Assembly: GCA_964016885.1 (NCBI GenBank)
Contig: OZ024759.1
Coordinates: 15,376,001-15,440,000, forward strand
Reading direction: 5' to 3'
DNA: 64,000 bases
Source: Eledone cirrhosa
Taxonomy: Eukaryota
In this document: in pieces, positions 5,411 to 58,529 of the stretch
Layout: each line of letters opens with the position of its first letter
Numbering within the stretch: position 1 is the first letter of the stretch
The notes under the pieces: generated by a model
Told to the model about the DNA's origin: nothing
The model's input: only the letters and a program-made list of their open reading frames with translations
Databases searched by the model: none
Translations under genes and position numbers: made by a program

Positions 5411-5446
<36 letters not shown>

Positions 5447-5449
<3 letters not shown>

Positions 5450-7645
5450 AGTATAGACATAGAATATTCGAAAATATTCTGTATGTTTATAATAAACATT
5501 TTGAAGACCTAATCGCTATAGAATAGAATACGTCACGTATTACAATTAGATTCTCGATAAAAGCAAGGGAAGTAATCTACGCGTTTCATTCTTGTTAGAA
5601 TTCATCAGGACTACATATCCAGTGCTTTTATCGAGAATGACACAGCTAGAGACTTATAGAATACTTAGCTGTGTACTGGAACTGGTTTGAAAGAGCGGTT
5701 GCCGGTCCGGCAGAAATTAGAAATTGGAATAAATGCTCTGAAATAGCGATATATATGTGAGTATAGACATAGAATATTCGAAAATATTCTGTATGTTTAT
5801 AATAAACATTTTGAAGACCTAATCGCTATAGAATAGAATACGTCACGTATTACAATTAGATTCTCGATAAAAGCAAGGGAAGTAATCTACGCGTTTCATT
5901 CTTGTTAGAATTCATCAGGACTACATATCCAGTGCTTTTATCGAGAATGACACAGCTAGAGACTTATAGAATACTTAGCTGTGTACTGGAACTGGTTTGA
6001 AAGAGCGGTTGCCGGTCCGGCAGAAATTAGAAATTGGAATAAATGCTCTGAAATAGCGATATATATGTGAGTATAGACATAGAATATTCGAAAATATTCT
6101 GTATGTTTATAATAAACATTTTGAAGACCTAATCGCTATAGAATAGAATACGTCACGTATTACAATTAGATTCTCGATAAAAGCAAGGGAAGTAATCTAC
6201 GCGTTTCATTCTTGTTAGAATTCATCAGGACTACATATCCAGTGCTTTTATCGAGAATGACACAGCTAGAGACTTATAGAATACTTAGCTGTGTACTGGA
6301 ACTGGTTTGAAAGAGCGGTTGCCGGTCCGGCAGAAATTAGAAATTGGAATAAATGCTCTGAAATAGCGATATATATGTGAGTATAGACATAGAATATTCG
6401 AAAATATTCTGTATGTTTATAATAAACATTTTGAAGACCTAATCGCTATAGAATAGAATACGTCACGTATTACAATTAGATTCTCGATAAAAGCAAGGGA
6501 AGTAATCTACGCGTTTCATTCTTGTTAGAATTCATCAGGACTACATATCCAGTGCTTTTATCGAGAATGACACAGCTAGAGACTTATAGAATACTTAGCT
6601 GTGTACTGGAACTGGTTTGAAAGAGCGGTTGCCGGTCCGGCAGAAATTAGAAATTGGAATAAATGCTCTGAAATAGCGATATATATGTGAGTATAGACAT
6701 AGAATATTCGAAAATATTCTGTATGTTTATAATAAACATTTTGAAGACCTAATCGCTATAGAATAGAATACGTCACGTATTACAATTAGATTCTCGATAA
6801 AAGCAAGGGAAGTAATCTACGCGTTTCATTCTTGTTAGAATTCATCAGGACTACATATCCAGTGCTTTTATCGAGAATGACACAGCTAGAGACTTATAGA
6901 ATACTTAGCTGTGTACTGGAACTGGTTTGAAAGAGCGGTTGCCGGTCCGGCAGAAATTAGAAATTGGAATAAATGCTCTGAAATAGCGATATATATGTGA
7001 GTATAGACATAGAATATTCGAAAATATTCTGTATGTTTATAATAAACATTTTGAAGACCTAATCGCTATAGAATAGAATACGTCACGTATTACAATTAGA
7101 TTCTCGATAAAAGCAAGGGAAGTAATCTACGCGTTTCATTCTTGTTAGAATTCATCAGGACTACATATCCAGTGCTTTTATCGAGAATGACACAGCTAGA
7201 GACTTATAGAATACTTAGCTGTGTACTGGAACTGGTTTGAAAGAGCGGTTGCCGGTCCGGCAGAAATTAGAAATTGGAATAAATGCTCTGAAATAGCGAT
7301 ATATATGTGAGTATAGACATAGAATATTCGAAAATATTCTGTATGTTTATAATAAACATTTTGAAGACCTAATCGCTATAGAATAGAATACGTCACGTAT
7401 TACAATTAGATTCTCGATAAAAGCAAGGGAAGTAATCTACGCGTTTCATTCTTGTTAGAATTCATCAGGACTACATATCCAGTGCTTTTATCGAGAATGA
7501 CACAGCTAGAGACTTATAGAATACTTAGCTGTGTACTGGAACTGGTTTGAAAGAGCGGTTGCCGGTCCGGCAGAAATTAGAAATTGGAATAAATGCTCTG
7601 AAATAGCGATATATATGTGAGTATAGACATAGAATATTCGAAAAT
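5447..7645 (-). mobile_element. Retrozyme-like array, left arm: 7 apparently identical 310-bp monomers plus a partial, each with an HHR on the minus strand
   Basis: Period 310 (GTGAGT at 5447, 5757, 6067, 6377, 6687, 6997, 7307, 7617). HHR at 5572-5614 + n*310. Confidence 0.93.
5572..5614 (-). ncRNA. Minimal type I hammerhead ribozyme (7 copies at +310 intervals, last at 7432-7474)
   Basis: Exact reverse complement of the 7886-7928 motif. Confidence 0.93.
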
Positions 7646-9941
7646 TGTAATACGTGACGTATTCTATTCTATAGCGATTAGGTCTTCAAAATGTTTATTA
7701 TAAACATACAGAATATTTTCGAATATTCTATGTCTATACTCACATATATATCGCTATTTCAGAGCATTTATTCCAATTTCTAATTTCTGCCGGACCGGCA
7801 ACCGCTCTTTCAAACCAGTTCCAGTACACAGCTAAGTATTCTATAAGTCTCTAGCTGTGTCATTCTCGATAAAAGCACTGGATATGTAGTCCTGATGAAT
7901 TCTAACAAGAATGAAACGCGTAGATTACTTCCCTTGCTTTTATCGAGAATCTAATTGTAATACGTGACGTATTCTATTCTATAGCGATTAGGTCTTCAAA
8001 ATGTTTATTATAAACATACAGAATATTTTCGAATATTCTATGTCTATACTCACATATATATCGCTATTTCAGAGCATTTATTCCAATTTCTAATTTCTGC
8101 CGGACCGGCAACCGCTCTTTCAAACCAGTTCCAGTACACAGCTAAGTATTCTATAAGTCTCTAGCTGTGTCATTCTCGATAAAAGCACTGGATATGTAGT
8201 CCTGATGAATTCTAACAAGAATGAAACGCGTAGATTACTTCCCTTGCTTTTATCGAGAATCTAATTGTAATACGTGACGTATTCTATTCTATAGCGATTA
8301 GGTCTTCAAAATGTTTATTATAAACATACAGAATATTTTCGAATATTCTATGTCTATACTCACATATATATCGCTATTTCAGAGCATTTATTCCAATTTC
8401 TAATTTCTGCCGGACCGGCAACCGCTCTTTCAAACCAGTTCCAGTACACAGCTAAGTATTCTATAAGTCTCTAGCTGTGTCATTCTCGATAAAAGCACTG
8501 GATATGTAGTCCTGATGAATTCTAACAAGAATGAAACGCGTAGATTACTTCCCTTGCTTTTATCGAGAATCTAATTGTAATACGTGACGTATTCTATTCT
8601 ATAGCGATTAGGTCTTCAAAATGTTTATTATAAACATACAGAATATTTTCGAATATTCTATGTCTATACTCACATATATATCGCTATTTCAGAGCATTTA
8701 TTCCAATTTCTAATTTCTGCCGGACCGGCAACCGCTCTTTCAAACCAGTTCCAGTACACAGCTAAGTATTCTATAAGTCTCTAGCTGTGTCATTCTCGAT
8801 AAAAGCACTGGATATGTAGTCCTGATGAATTCTAACAAGAATGAAACGCGTAGATTACTTCCCTTGCTTTTATCGAGAATCTAATTGTAATACGTGACGT
8901 ATTCTATTCTATAGCGATTAGGTCTTCAAAATGTTTATTATAAACATACAGAATATTTTCGAATATTCTATGTCTATACTCACATATATATCGCTATTTC
9001 AGAGCATTTATTCCAATTTCTAATTTCTGCCGGACCGGCAACCGCTCTTTCAAACCAGTTCCAGTACACAGCTAAGTATTCTATAAGTCTCTAGCTGTGT
9101 CATTCTCGATAAAAGCACTGGATATGTAGTCCTGATGAATTCTAACAAGAATGAAACGCGTAGATTACTTCCCTTGCTTTTATCGAGAATCTAATTGTAA
9201 TACGTGACGTATTCTATTCTATAGCGATTAGGTCTTCAAAATGTTTATTATAAACATACAGAATATTTTCGAATATTCTATGTCTATACTCACATATATA
9301 TCGCTATTTCAGAGCATTTATTCCAATTTCTAATTTCTGCCGGACCGGCAACCGCTCTTTCAAACCAGTTCCAGTACACAGCTAAGTATTCTATAAGTCT
9401 CTAGCTGTGTCATTCTCGATAAAAGCACTGGATATGTAGTCCTGATGAATTCTAACAAGAATGAAACGCGTAGATTACTTCCCTTGCTTTTATCGAGAAT
9501 CTAATTGTAATACGTGACGTATTCTATTCTATAGCGATTAGGTCTTCAAAATGTTTATTATAAACATACAGAATATTTTCGAATATTCTATGTCTATACT
9601 CACATATATATCGCTATTTCAGAGCATTTATTCCAATTTCTAATTTCTGCCGGACCGGCAACCGCTCTTTCAAACCAGTTCCAGTACACAGCTAAGTATT
9701 CTATAAGTCTCTAGCTGTGTCATTCTCGATAAAAGCACTGGATATGTAGTCCTGATGAATTCTAACAAGAATGAAACGCGTAGATTACTTCCCTTGCTTT
9801 TATCGAGAATCTAATTGTAATACGTGACGTATTCTATTCTATAGCGATTAGGTCTTCAAAATGTTTATTATAAACATACAGAATATTTTCGAATATTCTA
9901 TGTCTATACTCACATATATATCGCTATTTCAGAGCATTTAT

Positions 9942-9946
<5 letters not shown>
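7646..9946 (+). mobile_element. Retrozyme-like array, right arm: ~7.4 inverted copies of the same 310-bp monomer
   Basis: Reverse complement of the left-arm unit. Junction at 7643-7645 through AAT microhomology. Ends in (TA)n. Confidence 0.93.
7886..7928 (+). ncRNA. Minimal type I hammerhead ribozyme (also at 8196, 8506, 8816, 9126, 9436, 9746)
   Basis: GTAGTC-CTGATGA-ATTCT(aaca)AGAAT-GAAA-CGCG-TA-GATTAC. Intact core, GUA site, palindromic ACGCGT stem III, distal 16-bp stem ATTCTCGATAAAAGCA/TGCTTTTATCGAGAAT. Confidence 0.93.
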
Positions 9947-9991
<45 letters not shown>

Positions 9992-10098
9992 GTATATATA
10001 TGCATATATATATATATATATATGCATATATATATATATGCATATATATATATATATGCATATATATATATATATATATATATGCATATATATATATA

Positions 10099-10565
<467 letters not shown>

Positions 10566-32227: not shown

Positions 32228-32904
32228 AACATATATATACATATTTGTGTGTATGTGTAAAATAGTCGCGAGAGAGTGAGAGTTTCTGTTTGTAGTGTGT
32301 TGTTTAAACACCGCCTATAATTCTCTAAACATGTAATGTAGTTAAATATACGTTCAATGCCTTGTATCTGTTTCGCTATATTTTATTTTATAGTATTTTA
32401 GCCATAATTTTTATCTCAGTTATTTCATCTTTCCAAATGAATAAACGGTTTAGTGGCAAAGAAAGTAATGAGTCTCAAGAAAAGTCCAAGAGGTAGTGAT
32501 TTGGAAAAATGAGATAGTGGAGGTTGTTTTTCTTATTCCCTTGTTACTGGTATTTTTATTTTGTTTAGCTCCAGGTCAACATTGATCGAACAGACAAACC
32601 TATTGATCAAATGAGTTTGAATCAAGCAGCTATTGTTTGATTTTTTTTTCAGCCATATTGAATGAGAAGGAGGTGCGATGAAGTAGTCGTTAGAATGTCG
32701 GATCGAATAGCTTGTTGTATGAGACCTGAGATTACTTCCTTTGAGGTCAACATTTGCTTTCTCGATAAATAAAGTCAACATTTGCCTAGGTTAATAAATA
32801 AAGTCAACCTTTTCCTAGCTTGGTAAATAAAGTAACAGTCCACTACTTGTCTCGACCTTTTCATTCTCTTGCAAGACATTTTATTTCAGGTTGCTCCGTT
32901 TTAT

Positions 32905-34543
32905 CTGAGTTATAATGTGACTCAAAACGTCGGCTTTATCATACACTGTGTCAAGCTGTATCGGCTTGTATTTCATTAAACCACGAGCAGCTTCTCTGAG
33001 TTATAATGTGACTCGAAAGGTCGGCTTTATCATACACTGTGTCAAGCTGTATCGGCTTGTATTTCATTAAACCACGAGCAGCTTCTCTGAGTTATAATGT
33101 GACTCGAAAGGTCGGCTTTATCATACACTGTGTCAAGCTGTATCGGCTTGTATTTCATTAAACCACGAGCAGCTTCTCTGAGTTATAATGTGACTCAAAA
33201 GGTCGGCTTTATCATATACTGTGTCAAGCTGTATCGGCTTGGATTTCATTAAACAACGAGCAGCTTCTCTGAGTTATAATGTGACTCAAAAGGTCGGCTT
33301 TATCATACACTGTGTCAAGCTGTATCGGCTTGTATTTCATTAAACCATGAGCAGCTTCTCTGAGTTATAATGTGACTCGAAAGGTCGGCTTTATCATACA
33401 CTGTGTCAAGCTGTATCGGCTTGTATTTCATTAAACCACGAGCAGCTTCTCTGAGTTATAATGTGACTCAAAAGGTCGGCTTTATCATACACTGTGTCAA
33501 GCTGTATCGGCTTGGATTTCATTAAACAACGAGCAGCTTCTCTGAGTTATAATGTGACTCAAAAGGTCGGCTTTATCATACACTGTGTCAAGCTGTATCG
33601 GCTTGTATTTCATTAAACCACGAGCAGCTTCTCTGAGTTATAATGTGACTCGAAATGTCGGCTTTATCATACACTGTGTCAAGCTGTATCGGCTTGTATT
33701 TCATTAAACCACGAGCAGCTTCTCTGAGTTATAATGTGACTTAAAAGGTCGGCTTTATCATACACTGTGTCAAGCTGTATCGGCTTGGATTTCATTAAAC
33801 AACGAGCAGCTTCTCTGAGTTATAATGTGACTCAAAAGGTCGGCTTTATCATACACTGTGTCAAGCTGTATCGGCTTGGATTTCATTAAACCATGAGCAG
33901 CTTCTCTATGTTATAATGTGACTCAAAAGGTCGGCTTTATCATACACTGTGTCAAGCTGTATCGGCTTGGATTTCATTAAACCACGAGCAGCTTCTCTGA
34001 GTTATAATGTGACTCAAAAGGTCGGCTTTATCATACACTGTGTCAAGCTGTATCGGCTTGGATTTCATTAAACCATGAGCAGCTTCTCTATGTTATAATG
34101 TGACTCAAAAGGTCGGCTTTATCATACACTGTGTCAAGCTGTATCGGCTTGTATTTCATTAAACCACGAGCAGCTTCTCTGAGTTATAATGTGACTCGAA
34201 AGGTCGGCTTTATCATACACTGTGTCAAGCTGTATCGGCTTGTATTTCATTAAACCACGAGCAGCTTCTCTGAGTTATAATGTGACTCAAAAGGTCGGCT
34301 TTATCATACACTGTGTCAAGCTGTATCGGCTTGGATTTCATTAAACAACGAGCAGCTTCTCTGAGTTATAATGTGACTCAAAAGGTCGGCTTTATCATAC
34401 ACTGTGTCAAGCTGTATCGGCTTGGATTTCATTAAACCATGATCAGCTTCTCTATGTTATAATTTGACTCAAAGGGTCGGCTTTATCATACACTGTGTCA
34501 AGCTGTATCGGCTTGTATTTCATTAAACCACGAGCAGCTTCTC
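32905..34543. repeat. 91-bp tandem satellite, 18 copies
   Basis: CTGAGTTATAATGTGACTCRAAAGGTCGGCTTTATC... at 32905, 32996, 33087 etc. Few variant positions. Confidence 0.97.
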
Positions 34544-34627
34544 TTATAGATCAAACGACATAAAAATAGTCATCGGAAGCGACAAATGTCCAGCACAAAC
34601 TCTTTAAAATGTTATTTTATATATCCA

Positions 34628-38058: not shown

Positions 38059-38415
38059 CATCCATATATATATTGCTATTTCAGAGCTCCAATTTTAATT
38101 TTTAATTTCTGCCTGACCAACAACCGCTCTGCATAATCAGCTCCTGATTATTTACTAGATTTCTATAAGAATATAACATCAATGATCTCAGTAGACAGGT
38201 GGGGTAGTTGGCCTTGATAAGCTTCAACCAAAGCGAAACAAGTCTTGTCGGCTTATCTCCCCTGTTTGCTGAGATCAAAGTGAGTGAATTTGTCACTACT
38301 TTAAAACAATAACTTACGGTCTTCAAAATGCTTTTAATTAAGCATAAAGTGTATTACAAAATACATTATATATACATCCATATATATATTGCTATTTCAG
38401 AGCTCCAATTCTAAT
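38059..38415 (+). mobile_element. Diverged 316-bp retrozyme-like monomer (~1.1 units) related to the 310-bp array, with degenerate HHR at 38210-38253
   Basis: Shares GCTATTTCAGAGC, TAATTTCTGCC, CAACCGCTCT, TTCTATAAG, GGTCTTCAAAATG. Terminal redundancy 38059/38375. GGCC-TTGATAA-GCTT(caacca)AAGC-GAAA-CAAGTCTTG-TC-GGCT. Confidence 0.85.
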
Positions 38416-53382: not shown

Positions 53383-53388
<6 letters not shown>

Positions 53389-54357
53389 TTAGTTATACTA
53401 TTTATGGTTATGTAAATACAAAGCCTTAAGCAGTTGTAAGTATTTTACACACACCCTAAATAGTGGTAGGCAGTAATGTATTACTACCTTATTACCAGTA
53501 AGTTAAGTAGCTCAATGTAAAAACATCAGATGATTTACAGAGCAGTTATATGAAATATAAGAATCAAAGAACTGTTCAAAACATTATTGTGCTTACAGCT
53601 GTTTCCTCCAAATCGAGGTTTGGATTCTTCGGAGCAATTTATTAATGCATGGACAGTTATATGACCTCCTTTTCAGCCGAGAGACATACCAAATACATAT
53701 TCAAACATTGATACATATTCAAACATTGTGGGTCAACATTCATTACAGAATTTAGAGTGGCAGTACACACTTCGAGATTACATTTATATTAATAGGTACA
53801 ATCAAAAATCGAAGATATAGGTTAAAGTACAACATGAAGATAAGTGGTTATATAGTGCAAATGTTATATGTGTGGCACGCATGTGCGTCTTGTTTATATA
53901 GTGTGGCAGAGAGATATGTGTGGTAGAGGCACTTAGGTAGGTAAATAAGAGTGTTAGGTTGGTAGGTCTGGTGGCAAAGTCTTTATATGATTGATATAGT
54001 CTGTGTGTGGAGAAATATTATAAGCATTAAAGATAGTGCAAGCATTAAAAGTGTTATAAGTATTGGAGATGCACAGCGCAGGGATGTCAAGTAATTCATG
54101 TACTTCGGCATTTTCATGGTCAAGGGAGTGTATATTTCGATTATATGCCTTTCACATAATCCACGACAATCCAGTAAGAGATCGTAGTCTGGTGTTCTTT
54201 AGTTCGATACAGGGGGATGTTACGTTTCGAGAAACGCCATTGAATACCGGAAGTGTGTGTGTGGCTAAGGGGAGTTAATGCATGCGGGGAGGTAACTCTG
54301 GGGTTTCTATATCTAGCCATTAAAATGTGTCCCAATATAGACCCTAAATTCTATGGT
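53383..54357 (-). repeat. 3' pseudo-LTR
   Basis: Near-identical to 57555-58529 (one G/A difference noticed at ~53811/57983). Confidence 0.95.
53590..53636 (-). ncRNA. Hammerhead ribozyme in the 3' pLTR (CCGAAGA core variant)
   Basis: TGCT-CCGAAGA-A-TCCAAA(cctcga)TTTGGA-G-GAAA-CAGCTG-TA-AGCA. Confidence 0.82.
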
Positions 54358-55052
54358 GAGGTGCACCTTCCAAGAGAGACTTTTAAAGCATAAAGTGTAC
54401 TAACTATAGAGTAGTTTATATTATTATTAAGGTGGATTAACCCATCTTAAGGTGCTACAAATGGAAATTATAGATGATGAGCGAGGATTCTAAAATGATC
54501 TCTGTGGTTGTAGTCTGCTCATATGACCAGGCGCGGTGATTGCAGGATTGCTTCAGGACCCAATGATCTCTGGTAAGATCTGGGTCATCGCTTGCTACAT
54601 TGGATGTCGAAAGATAATCGTCCCCAGGCAGGCCAAGGTCAATCCGCAGTCCTCGCGACCCCTCTCTGACCGTCAGATCATCCATATACGTACAACCCGC
54701 ACGGCAGTTGCATTGCATTCACTCACTGCGCTCAGCAGCCCGGTCCTACTGGTCAACAGCGCTACTCGATTAAATCATTTTACATCTGTCTAAGGAAGGT
54801 GTTTCCTCTGCCCAACAACATCCAACCGATCAATTCATGCTCAAAATTACCCTTAGAGCGGTGTAGTGCCATCAAGTGGGTGGATGTTGTCACACCTGCC
54901 GTAGAGGTATAAATGGGTATTTTCCCTGCGAAGGGTTCCAGAGGGATGCCGTTGTTTGTGTTATAATGGATCAGCTAGTGTTGGGTATGTAGTATAGGGT
55001 GTGTTTCTGGTGTTTGATGCTAGATGTGGTGTTAGGTTCCAGTCCGACATTG

Positions 55053-57512
55053 CTATATATAGGGCTTAAAGTTTTGGAAGGAATGTCTGAGGCGGTGCTG
55101 GCAAGTTGCAAACACCTCAGATTTTTTGTTAAGTAGGTTACGGTTGGAGAAGATAATATTGTGTGTCTCTAGAATACAGAGGTTACAGAATTTATTAGGT
55201 GGTTTGTACGAGGTCGCGCTGCCTATCACTTCCCATTTGAGTGTGTATGGTTTATTTTTAGATTTTAGATAGTGTATGTAGCTAGAAAGTGAGGTGGAGT
55301 TGGCTAGGCTGTGCTTTTTGAACGAGTGGATGTGCGAGTTATATCTGATTTTGAAGCAGTTAGAAGTGGAGCCTACATAGGTTTCTGAAGAGTTATTAGT
55401 CGTGACTGTGCATGAGTATATGACATCCTTGGTTAGGCATTTTTTATCTAAAGGGCAGGTTCTATTAGCTCTACAGTTACAATTATTCTGTGCGTTAGTC
55501 CGCTGGTTATAATGCAATGCGGAAGTCTGTGTGGTGGATATAGGATTTTGGGTGTTCGGGTTGGCAACCCTGGTGTTATTACTTATACTAGTGTTATTTC
55601 TATTGTTACTGCCGTTGCTATTGTTGCTTGCTACAGTGGTATTTAGAGGGTTTGCATCCTGTTGTGATTTTGTTTGTTGGAAGTAAGAACTAATTTTACT
55701 ATTATTGCTGCTAGCTATGTGGTATGCTAAGTTAGGCGTCGTAGAGTATGAGATTTTAATGGTGTTTTTGTTTAAGAGGTTGTGGTACTTGTGTCCTAGA
55801 GGGAAGTTTTTATCTAGTAGTGAGAAGAAAGCCCTAGGTATGTTGGTGGAGACATTTAGGTTGAAAGGAGGGTTGAAAAATGTATTATTTCTTCTTCTAT
55901 TTTTGTTTTTAGTGTTTGGTGTGTTGCTTCCTCCTAAGGCCTCACAGTAGTTTCCATGGTAATGGTTACTTCCTGTGGCACCCTCCGCTTTGGTGTACTT
56001 GTGGTTGCTATTCCTATTATTAGACTTCCTCATGGACATGTTGTGCGAGATTATGTTGTAGCTATGTGTTTTCTTAGGTAGGAACTCAATTTCTATATTA
56101 TGGCCGGAGCTAGCTAATGCTTGATTGTAATATTGTGAGTTTTTGCTAAATATGTTTGCGTCATAGGACAGACTAGAGATTCTATTGGACACCCCCTTAG
56201 AGATAGAGTTTAATATTGATCTAGGGTGATTAGACTTGGTATCTACGTAAATAAGTTTCTCATTAGGCTTATGGAAAGGTGTATATATTTTTGAGTCTAG
56301 GTATAGTGTGGCGTCTAGGAAGTTAACATTTTTAGTGTTTTTGTCCATGGTGATACTAAGGTTAAAGTTTTTGAATGTCTTATGCAGTTGTTTTCTAGTT
56401 CTTTCTATATTAAATTTTTTATATTCTATGAGTAGAAGTGCATCATCGCGGTACAAACCACCGTTGAGGTAAGGGAGGTCTTTATGGATTTCATTGAGGA
56501 GGTATAGGCCGACCAAATCAGTGACCTGCGCCGAGTCACTAGATCCCATGGTTATGTCGAAGTTGTTGTGCGTATCCTTGCGTGTCCATAGTTGGTCCTC
56601 GAAGGTGATTATGGTTTTACGGGCCGCAAGGATGACATCAACCTGGGCTCTAGTCAGGTCGCTATTGGTCATGGCCATGATAAGTGCCTTATTTAATAGG
56701 ATAGGGGAAATAGAGGTGTAGTATGAATTGATATCAAATTGAATAAATTTTTTGTTTTTATTATTCTTGATATCCTTAAACCATTCAATTACTTCACCCG
56801 TATTTCCCCATTGTTTAAGGTGTATCTTGTGTTTAATTTGTGGGATGATTTTATCCAAAATCTTCTTGCTGATAATACCAATGTCGGACTTGGAAGGGCA
56901 GATAAGTCTTATCGTGGGGTTGCTGATGAAGTTCTCCTTATGGTCCTTCAGAGAGAATCTAGGGGGGTTCGGAGTGAAAGGTTGTGTATGCCTCTGTAGT
57001 CCTAGTTTAGACACTATATTATAACCCTCTACATTAATATCTTCTAAGTTTTTCAAGGTGGTTTTTTTGTAGCTTTTATGTAGTTCATTATATATAAACT
57101 TTCTATAAGTAATATAATCTAGGCTGTATATGTTATTAGTTTTATCTGCGTGTACAATAATTTTATTACTAGTTTTGAATCCACTAATAGAAGTGTTAAG
57201 TTTGTTTAAGAAGGTGTTGCTTCTAATATGGTGCTTATTGTATTTAATGTTCTTAACTAGTTTAACTAGGTCATTTTCAAAGGAGTTAAGTAGAGTGTTA
57301 TGAGGGGGGCTTTTAAAGGTTTTAAAGCCGAAGGAGTCAAAATTGTTAGTATTATTCAAGTTGTTAGATTTGTTTCTATCATAATGGAATGTCCTCCATC
57401 TCACTCTATTGATAAATGAATTTACACTGTTGATCAGCAATTTCTCATATGTATTCCTGGATGGTATTGGTATGTTCTTGGTTGACATGGGGAGTTGGTC
57501 TTTGATTAGCAT
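55053..57512 (-). CDS. Penelope-like reverse transcriptase + C-terminal GIY-YIG endonuclease, 819 aa
   Basis: HADKTNN, LKDHK..PTIRLI, FDINSYY, FDITMGSSDSAQ, LYRDDAL, NFLDATL. CNC..CPL..KCL linker. VIYSCTV..TYVG, FKIRYNSH, CNLCILE, LLNKKSE..CQH. Confidence 0.96.
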   Translation of the reverse strand: MLIKDQLPMSTKNIPIPSRNTYEKLLINSVNSFINRVRWRTFHYDRNKSNNLNNTNNFDSFGFKTFKSPPHNTLLNSFENDLVKLVKNIKYNKHHIRSNTFLNKLNTSISGFKTSNKIIVHADKTNNIYSLDYITYRKFIYNELHKSYKKTTLKNLEDINVEGYNIVSKLGLQRHTQPFTPNPPRFSLKDHKENFISNPTIRLICPSKSDIGIISKKILDKIIPQIKHKIHLKQWGNTGEVIEWFKDIKNNKNKKFIQFDINSYYTSISPILLNKALIMAMTNSDLTRAQVDVILAARKTIITFEDQLWTRKDTHNNFDITMGSSDSAQVTDLVGLYLLNEIHKDLPYLNGGLYRDDALLLIEYKKFNIERTRKQLHKTFKNFNLSITMDKNTKNVNFLDATLYLDSKIYTPFHKPNEKLIYVDTKSNHPRSILNSISKGVSNRISSLSYDANIFSKNSQYYNQALASSGHNIEIEFLPKKTHSYNIISHNMSMRKSNNRNSNHKYTKAEGATGSNHYHGNYCEALGGSNTPNTKNKNRRRNNTFFNPPFNLNVSTNIPRAFFSLLDKNFPLGHKYHNLLNKNTIKISYSTTPNLAYHIASSNNSKISSYFQQTKSQQDANPLNTTVASNNSNGSNNRNNTSISNNTRVANPNTQNPISTTQTSALHYNQRTNAQNNCNCRANRTCPLDKKCLTKDVIYSCTVTTNNSSETYVGSTSNCFKIRYNSHIHSFKKHSLANSTSLSSYIHYLKSKNKPYTLKWEVIGSATSYKPPNKFCNLCILETHNIIFSNRNLLNKKSEVFATCQHRLRHSFQNFKPYI

Positions 57513-57554
57513 ATTGGCAATATTATATGTCAGCTCAACGATATGGAGCAGTTA

Positions 57555-58529
57555 ATAGTATTAGTTATACTATTTATGGTTATGTAAATACAAAGCCTTA
57601 AGCAGTTGTAAGTATTTTACACACACCCTAAATAGTGGTAGGCAGTAATGTATTACTACCTTATTACCAGTAAGTTAAGTAGCTCAATGTAAAAACATCA
57701 GATGATTTACAGAGCAGTTATATGAAATATAAGAATCAAAGAACTGTTCAAAACATTATTGTGCTTACAGCTGTTTCCTCCAAATCGAGGTTTGGATTCT
57801 TCGGAGCAATTTATTAATGCATGGACAGTTATATGACCTCCTTTTCAGCCGAGAGACATACCAAATACATATTCAAACATTGATACATATTCAAACATTG
57901 TGGGTCAACATTCATTACAGAATTTAGAGTGGCAGTACACACTTCGAGATTACATTTATATTAATAGGTACAATCAAAAATCAAAGATATAGGTTAAAGT
58001 ACAACATGAAGATAAGTGGTTATATAGTGCAAATGTTATATGTGTGGCACGCATGTGCGTCTTGTTTATATAGTGTGGCAGAGAGATATGTGTGGTAGAG
58101 GCACTTAGGTAGGTAAATAAGAGTGTTAGGTTGGTAGGTCTGGTGGCAAAGTCTTTATATGATTGATATAGTCTGTGTGTGGAGAAATATTATAAGCATT
58201 AAAGATAGTGCAAGCATTAAAAGTGTTATAAGTATTGGAGATGCACAGCGCAGGGATGTCAAGTAATTCATGTACTTCGGCATTTTCATGGTCAAGGGAG
58301 TGTATATTTCGATTATATGCCTTTCACATAATCCACGACAATCCAGTAAGAGATCGTAGTCTGGTGTTCTTTAGTTCGATACAGGGGGATGTTACGTTTC
58401 GAGAAACGCCATTGAATACCGGAAGTGTGTGTGTGGCTAAGGGGAGTTAATGCATGCGGGGAGGTAACTCTGGGGTTTCTATATCTAGCCATTAAAATGT
58501 GTCCCAATATAGACCCTAAATTCTATGGT
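57555..58529 (-). repeat. 5' pseudo-LTR
   Basis: Direct repeat of 53383-54357. Confidence 0.95.
57762..57808 (-). ncRNA. Hammerhead ribozyme in the 5' pLTR, ~250 nt upstream of the ORF start
   Basis: Identical to 53590-53636. Confidence 0.82.

Follow-up and report, generated by a model that had tools for sequence, protein, structure and literature searches.

A 64-kb window of the Eledone cirrhosa genome (contig OZ024759.1, positions 15,376,001 to 15,440,000; "the window" below is this whole stretch) contains a young retrozyme insertion, in which non-coding units of 310 nt, each bearing a hammerhead, form two multi-unit arms that meet head to head. The 310-bp element is a dispersed multi-copy family with over a thousand near-identical insertions. 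Variants that mark individual loci indicate that both arms are sense-templated, usually off one molecule, by way of a monomer step. We consider it probable that a protein of a Penelope-like element (PLE) starts cDNA synthesis from both target strands, at two fixed sites of a single RNA that is usually a monomer circle, and that the cDNAs are then end-joined. A more specific version, which we advance tentatively as a serious possibility rather than the expectation, would have the two active sites of a PLE reverse transcriptase (RT) dimer start at points separated by ~35 nt on a single 310-nt circular RNA and follow one another round it, each extending its own nicked strand, in a double rolling-circle form of target-primed reverse transcription (TPRT).

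Structure of the array in the window

Unit positions are numbered on window 7643–7952. The array and its parts are as follows.

5412..5446, no strand: left (TA)n target microsatellite
5439..7645, minus strand: antisense arm, 7.12 units; its 3' end at unit position 100–109 is the short, tail-less end, and its 5' end is at position 73
7643..7645, no strand: AAT microhomology linking the 5' ends of both arms
7643..7952, plus strand: reference unit, positions 1–310
7643..9947, plus strand: sense arm, 7.44 units; its 3' end at unit position 135 is the long, tailed end
7646..7714, plus strand: unpaired spacer of the palindrome, 69 bp, belonging to the sense arm
7862..7950, plus strand: 16-bp stem, unit 220–235 with 293–308, which would also close the released monomer
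7886..7928, plus strand: minimal type I hammerhead, recurring every 310 bp, with 7 further copies on the minus strand at 5573–7473
7923..8232, plus strand: predicted cut-to-cut monomer, 310 nt (putative circle)
9912..9947, plus strand: tail of ~35 nt, spanning the interval from one start site to the other (unit ~100–135), at the sense-arm end only
9946..10235, no strand: right (TA)n target microsatellite

The period is exactly 310 bp, and units are 100% identical to one another in both arms. The arms are perfect reverse complements across 2207 bp on either side of the 69-bp spacer. The outer flanks of the palindrome are not reverse complementary to each other, and the locus is therefore not a whole-read palindrome. 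Any target duplication at the left end is hidden inside the (TA)n repeat. A first-pass annotation of this DNA had described identical 310-bp units head to head, an AAT junction with (TA)n at both outer ends, units without an open reading frame (ORF), 14 intact hammerheads with GUA at 7920–7922, and a 16-bp extended stem. Each of these points holds: the longest stop-free stretch is 59 aa, so that the array encodes no protein, seven exact hammerhead cores lie on each strand, and the stem folds as claimed. The annotation was likewise right to call the element a retrozyme and the insertion very recent.

A dispersed family with two fixed 3' ends

Exact matches in the 3.0-Gb genome number 16,658 for an internal unit 20-mer, 3,923 for the window's hammerhead core and 1,034 for the junction of position 135 with (TA), and the controls gave 0 in each case. 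We mapped 99 loci, namely the window, 20 loci picked by identity, 18 by the internal 20-mer, 40 by the long end, and a set of 20 of which 19 were picked by the short end and one by identity; 39 of the 99 were chosen without regard to array ends. Loci L001–L030 overlap the 99 and were left out of the counts.

The head-to-head layout is present at 87 of the 99 loci, including 33 of the 39 picked without regard to ends, and there are no tail-to-tail pairs. One arm has its 3' end at unit 84–110 and its partner at 124–142 in 89 of 90 arm pairs; short and long ends are paired in the same way in 33 of 34 pairs from the end-unselected sets. The offset between the two positions is ~35 nt (26–39). Nearly all arm 3' ends (183 of 194) lie in a TA-rich context. 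Clear direct repeats of 14–15 bp flank the insertions at L087 and L077, and repeats of 12–14 bp occur at L035, L036, L079 and L157; 65 of 89 pairs have no direct repeat that breaks pure TA, and the remaining 24 have some repeat, mostly weak.

Priming had been proposed to proceed by annealing of the unit's internal (AT)4 to the target. This has partial support: the short end is ambiguous within (AT)n in 57 of 95 arms and lies at or before position 100 in 38. The arm ending near 135 matches the target over just 2–3 nt. The two start sites seem to be set by position, a behaviour also seen in the PLE PAc (PMC11167929; here and below, statements on published systems refer to the passages at hand of the papers cited).

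A degenerate motif returned 7,716 matches of older related families, which share the two end positions and differ in their hammerheads. Among the loci listed of 30 taken from these matches, arms are mostly short (<2 units). Older related retrozyme families were also seen at window 38060–38415, L036 9384–9901, L057 9100–9460, L081 5870–6215 and L119–L148, with 74–83% identity over unit ~29–205 and, in some, a U3/A8-type core in hammerhead position numbering; their start-site module is conserved and their ribozyme module is different. Long arrays at L150, L151 and L174 comprise 19–30+ units, with variants repeated at a spacing of 7 or dispersed.

Haplotypes shared between arms

Both arms carry a common haplotype in 36 of the 38 pairs (out of 50) in which each arm spans at least one unit. 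Permutation of arm haplotypes gave a mean of 4.6 agreeing pairs and a maximum of 14 in 20,000. These 38 loci hold 18 haplotypes, 12 of them seen once, and several are fixed over 14–22 units. Private variants are fixed in both arms at L151 (19/19 + 3/3 units) and L055 (17/17 + 2/2), and also across the arms of L168, L155 and L176. In 86 arms of at least 4 units, 173 variants are fixed, 83 are confined to a single unit and 11 are intermediate. Because private variants are fixed across arms, new variants appear to pass through a one-unit step followed by fast amplification, in line with the rolling copying via a monomer that the annotation had supposed. A monomer circle would most simply account for the one-unit step. 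The arms cross the predicted cut site 914 times, and the 22 changes at 279–282 are all substitutions, with no indel scar.

Two loci are informative in another way. At L170 and L187 the two arms share one non-fixed variant, in matching register when counted from the 3' end, and at L170 each arm extends past the other in the marked register. Both arms of L170 would therefore have copied a third molecule, in this instance an oligomer; gene conversion is a possible alternative for the shared register at these loci. Such sharing is confined to these 2 loci among 66 non-fixed variant entries in register covered by both arms.

Arm lengths and junctions

Length statistics were computed on 84 pairs, leaving out the rearranged L031, L054 and L071 together with arms truncated at the edge of the fetched sequence, and the exponential and 5'-end tests were run on 48 pairs not picked by the window haplotype. 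The arms differ by >310 bp in many pairs, with the short-end arm the longer one in 23 of them and its long-end partner in 37, and length ratios reach 10-fold and 23-fold in the two directions. Arm lengths fit an exponential (Kolmogorov–Smirnov p 0.47, n = 96 arms, mean ~1.4 kb), and the distribution is continuous across the 1-unit boundary. The 5' ends are uniform over the unit. Near the cut site there are 2 against 2.2 expected, and so the 48 pairs lack the pile-up that run-off on a cleaved linear RNA would produce. The 5' offsets between arms are ≤10 nt in 8 of 84 pairs against 5.7 expected.

The inverted arm had been attributed to fold-back. This origin is not borne out as a general rule: the arms are mostly unequal, in both directions, which leaves simple fold-back unsupported, and the second arm is neither nested in nor limited by the first. 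The near-equal arms of the window are not typical of the family. L1-style twin priming was also considered and rejected, the 5' end of the long arm lying within 20 nt of the short-arm start in 7 of 48 pairs against 6.3 expected. Junctions without an insert show microhomology of at least 2 nt in 45 of 67 cases, against 18% by chance. Short inserts are present at 23 of 90 junctions, and many appear locally templated; junctions with these features resemble those of polymerase-theta joining.

The hammerhead and its predicted fold

Within the unit, stem I pairs 244–249 with 281–286, CUGAUGA occupies 250–256, stem II pairs 257–261 with 266–270, and GAAA occupies 271–274. The palindromic ACGCGU of stem III lies at 274–279, and the predicted cut falls after GUA (7922). 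Core and stems are complete in 14 of 14 full window units. An Rfam search of the window array gave no match at the gathering score; the one weak match below it was to Hammerhead_HH9 (23 bits vs 52, E 0.003). In folding predictions, the hammerhead hairpin and the monomer have z scores of −6.9 and −4.4 against shuffles.

Stem III of a single hammerhead amounts to one A–U pair closing a CGCG loop. When a transcript contains two hammerheads, its unconstrained minimum-free-energy (MFE) structure is a double hammerhead in which the strands are swapped and ACGCGU forms a 6-bp duplex, at −111.6 kcal/mol vs −94.0 kcal/mol for two single ribozymes and with pair probabilities of 0.91–1.0. The annotation's minimal, dimer-dependent hammerhead is thus reproduced as a prediction. 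Self-cleavage after GUA is predicted in the dimer context, and a lone monomer circle is predicted to resist re-cutting because it would be without a stable stem III. A check of 32 family variants placed 28 at unpaired positions or in pairs that are retained, among them the linked 247A/282G of stem I. The other four each break a pair, and one of these is the frequent 257A>T change at the base of stem II. The window copy has the intact A–U form at this position.

Candidate mobiliser

The insertion footprint, with its inverted arm, one-sided tail and TA targets, supports the earlier proposal of a PLE as mobiliser. Published marks of PLE insertion are an inverted 5'-truncated copy, a 30–40-bp tail at one end and a bias toward microsatellites (PMC8557442; PMC3846280). 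In the PLE PAc, both strands are nicked and extended, synthesis begins at two internal sites on either side of the tail, and the protein is predicted to be a dimer (PMC11167929). The 310-bp unit itself has no ORF, and with it no RT plus GIY-YIG ORF of the autonomous-PLE kind.

An autonomous candidate lies in the same window.

53385..58529, minus strand: Hydra-type PLE, 4172-bp unit, 1.23 units in (TA)n

Its intact 819-aa ORF at 55053–57512 carries RW(R), DKT and CxCx5C, motifs given for PLEs of the (TA)n-targeting Hydra clade (PMC8557442). The family has at least 53 intact copies that are 99–100% identical. Most of 30 copies have an inverted arm, head to head, with two fixed 3' ends 164 nt apart that lie in (TA)n where the ends are in view. 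This spacing far exceeds the usual 30–40-nt tail. A hammerhead-like motif (CCGAAGA...GAAACAGCUGUA, read by eye) was noted upstream of the ORF. A Pfam search of 5 PLE-like ORFs gave one weak RVT_1 match.

The search for a partner PLE covered 3 families, the window Hydra-type and two other young ones, out of many in the genome. The unit and three related units have no homology to the window PLE unit, and none was found in 60 loci and 5 longer stretches of the two further families; matches inside these stretches are separate retrozyme insertions or TA repeats. No partner PLE was thus found among these three families. As a separate observation, a second Hydra-like family forms head-to-tail triples with ~6.7–6.9-kb units at C1:183739156-183752950 and C1:420380071-420394335, and 150 of 150 scored matches show 100% identity across the C-terminal 150 aa. 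It may be that full-length PLEs, too, go through more than one round of copying.

Proposed mechanism and its alternatives

In the mechanism that we propose, the array would be transcribed and two adjacent units would fold as the predicted double hammerhead through ACGCGU/ACGCGU and cut after GUA. Cleavage would release a 310-nt monomer, predicted to be closed by the long stem. A PLE RT-endonuclease, probably a dimer, would nick both strands of AT-rich DNA ~12–15 bp apart, a spacing suggested by the duplications at a few informative loci. The enzyme would start one cDNA near unit 100 and the other near 135, the observed end positions. Each RT would then circle its template and fall off at random, as the arm lengths and 5' ends suggest. 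The cDNA 3' ends would be joined by the 2–5 nt of microhomology or the short inserts seen at junctions, probably through end-joining repair, and filled in to give the head-to-head array. A minority of events, as single loci show, involve an oligomeric template or a template switch.

Several observations weigh against this scheme. Most calls of target duplication fall in TA repeats and are weak. The unit is without homology to the three active PLE families compared, and no PLE ORF adjoins the motif in the 30 loci taken from the 7,716 related-family matches. The arms differ at L033, L066, L082 and L161, so that two templates sometimes contribute. The dispersed repeated variants in L150, L151 and L174 suggest later conversion or assembly error, with oligomeric templates as a further possible option. 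The in-register heterogeneity in both arms of L170 and L187 points to oligomer templates that fit linear multimers, and PAc took unprocessed, uncleaved RNA in vitro, with ribozyme mutants inserting normally (PMC11167929). These last points favour the same PLE dual priming on a long uncleaved linear multimer of a homogeneous parent array, with no circles involved, as do the possible parent arrays of 27–30+ units (L150, L174) and the 8 of 9 Xenopus retrozyme dimers that stayed uncleaved in vitro (Li et al. 2026, 10.64898/2026.07.22.740005). We nevertheless regard a linear template as unlikely. Arrays could never lengthen by such copying, each of the 18 haplotypes would need its own long homogeneous parent, non-fixed variants are rarely shared in register, and a multimer is predicted to adopt the double hammerhead as its ground state.

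Could the arrays instead have grown in place? Short PLE-type insertions might have expanded later in DNA, by slippage or unequal exchange, with gene conversion from arm to arm making the palindrome uniform. Palindrome arms are able to convert each other. The repeated variants of L150, L151 (at spacing 7) and L174 would fit, and local amplification has been proposed (Li et al. 2026, 10.64898/2026.07.22.740005). The 83 single against 11 intermediate variants, however, imply that mutations postdate expansion, arm lengths run continuously and exponentially through the 1-unit boundary, and diverged copies (the first element of L048, and L075) and the older related families have short, not long, arms. 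Later expansion is on these grounds quite improbable.

Fold-back of one rolling-circle cDNA, copied into the inverted arm, also has points in its favour, some of which count against dual priming. The window's own arms are near-equal, such pairs are slightly in excess overall (24 of 84 vs 15.9, p 0.015; Spearman 0.28), the junctions at L059, L074 and L182 are near-perfect hairpins, and self-priming on an antisense template has been proposed for inverted, head-to-head PLE copies (Arkhipova et al. 2013, PMC3846280). A degree of fold-back or coupling is thus possible. As the source of the second arm throughout the family we judge it very improbable, given that either arm may be longer by more than one unit, that the small 5' offsets scarcely exceed expectation, that in the marked register of L170 neither arm can have been copied from the other, and that the fixed pairing of short and long ends would be left unexplained. 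Identical units in a palindrome might also raise suspicion of an assembly or library artefact. We give this little credence: the window flanks are not mirror images, 87 loci have locus-specific junctions, fixed end positions and private haplotypes, and contigs from sequencing run X1, which differs from the window at 7739, have TA junctions at unit 109 and 140.

If double rolling-circle TPRT is correct, each array would be a clonal record of a single RNA molecule and direct genomic evidence for ribozyme circles as retrotransposition intermediates, and the same process would account generally for the inverted-copy-plus-tail layout of PLEs.

Relation to known systems

The element class and the insertion footprint are each already known. 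The array shows every testable feature of animal non-LTR retrozymes, that is, retrozymes without long terminal repeats (Cervera & de la Pena 2020, PMC7229834; Li, Clavereau & Pollet 2026), with tandem ~310-bp non-coding units, a type I hammerhead per unit and a high copy number. The closest is axolotl Rtz_331 with HHR_Amex1, which shares the one-pair stem III and palindromic tetraloop and for which efficient cleavage is reported only in dimers (PMC7229834). In the common 257A>T variant a U–U stands at the base of stem II, as described for HHR_Amex2. In the passages at hand, the retrozyme arrays described all run head to tail, and both their mobiliser and their mechanism are hypothetical (PMC7229834; Li et al. 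2026); the retrozyme–PLE link rests on co-occurrence and pseudo-LTR (pLTR) homology (Li et al. 2026, 10.64898/2026.07.22.740005). The family described here differs in its two-armed head-to-head arrays, two fixed start sites, (TA)n targeting and per-locus haplotypes, and in having no pLTR homology to an autonomous PLE among the three families compared.

Endonuclease-bearing PLEs, notably the (TA)n-targeting Hydra clade, offer the second comparison (Craig et al. 2021, PMC8557442; PMC3846280; Frangieh et al. 2024, PMC11167929). Shared features are the inverted, 5'-truncated head-to-head copy, a 30–40-nt tail at one end, two internal start sites, microsatellite targeting and short target duplications, the last at few informative loci here. 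Unlike PLEs, the retrozyme has no ORF, and both of its arms are multi-unit, with up to 27 units mapped end to end. Its marker variants indicate sense templating of both arms, usually off one molecule, a point that the passages at hand of the PLE papers leave open.

In L1 twin priming, both target strands prime, the 5' ends are joined by microhomology and the 3' ends face outward, all of which recur here. The two L1 cDNAs copy non-overlapping parts of one linear RNA, whereas both arms of the retrozyme copy the same sequence many times. We found no description of two-armed retrozyme arrays or of haplotype-marked dual priming in the literature searched, with most subscription papers outside reach.

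The passages at hand of the retrozyme papers leave open what mobilises animal retrozymes and whether the circle is the template (PMC7229834; Li et al. 2026), and those of the PLE literature the origin of inverted copies with a one-sided tail (PMC8557442). On both questions the family offers more than a thousand very young insertions with marker variants, and a 310-nt substrate with two mapped start sites, in a genome that holds intact, active PLE proteins.

Sequencing runs and other features of the window

Run X1 contains the family at depth, with the common haplotypes present. At least half of the unit's words occur in 20 runs from 17 studies; none of these is on record as RNA, which carries no information about expression. 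All six runs examined that bear other organism labels (X4, X5, X6, X7, X13 and X17) yielded one flank-less unit contig each; four of these contigs are 340 nt and self-closing, which is compatible with a circle or a tandem array alike. The variants in the six contigs all occur in the source genome, and two sister runs of X6's sample have next to none of the unit's words. The 2% sampled of a Hi-C run under X17's organism label yielded no unit read, an outcome without weight either way. The self-closing single contigs suggest only weakly that the circle is also free in samples of other organisms. Cross-contamination is the simplest reading for these runs, simpler than either free circles or horizontal transfer. 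The intact stem II form, 257A, is present in 4 of the 6 contigs and is a minority in the genome (10 of 38 pairs) and in X1 (~13% of depth); X17 gave one unbranched unit contig at depth 365. This bias and depth may hint at an RNA source or at contamination.

Elsewhere in the window, a ~260-bp near-perfect fold-back lies immediately to the right of the (TA)n, at ~10300–10565. One half of it recurs in L192 and so marks a repeat family; the fold-back is perhaps another PLE-type mini-insertion. Finally, a 91-bp unit forms 18 tandem copies with 96% matches at 32904–34544.

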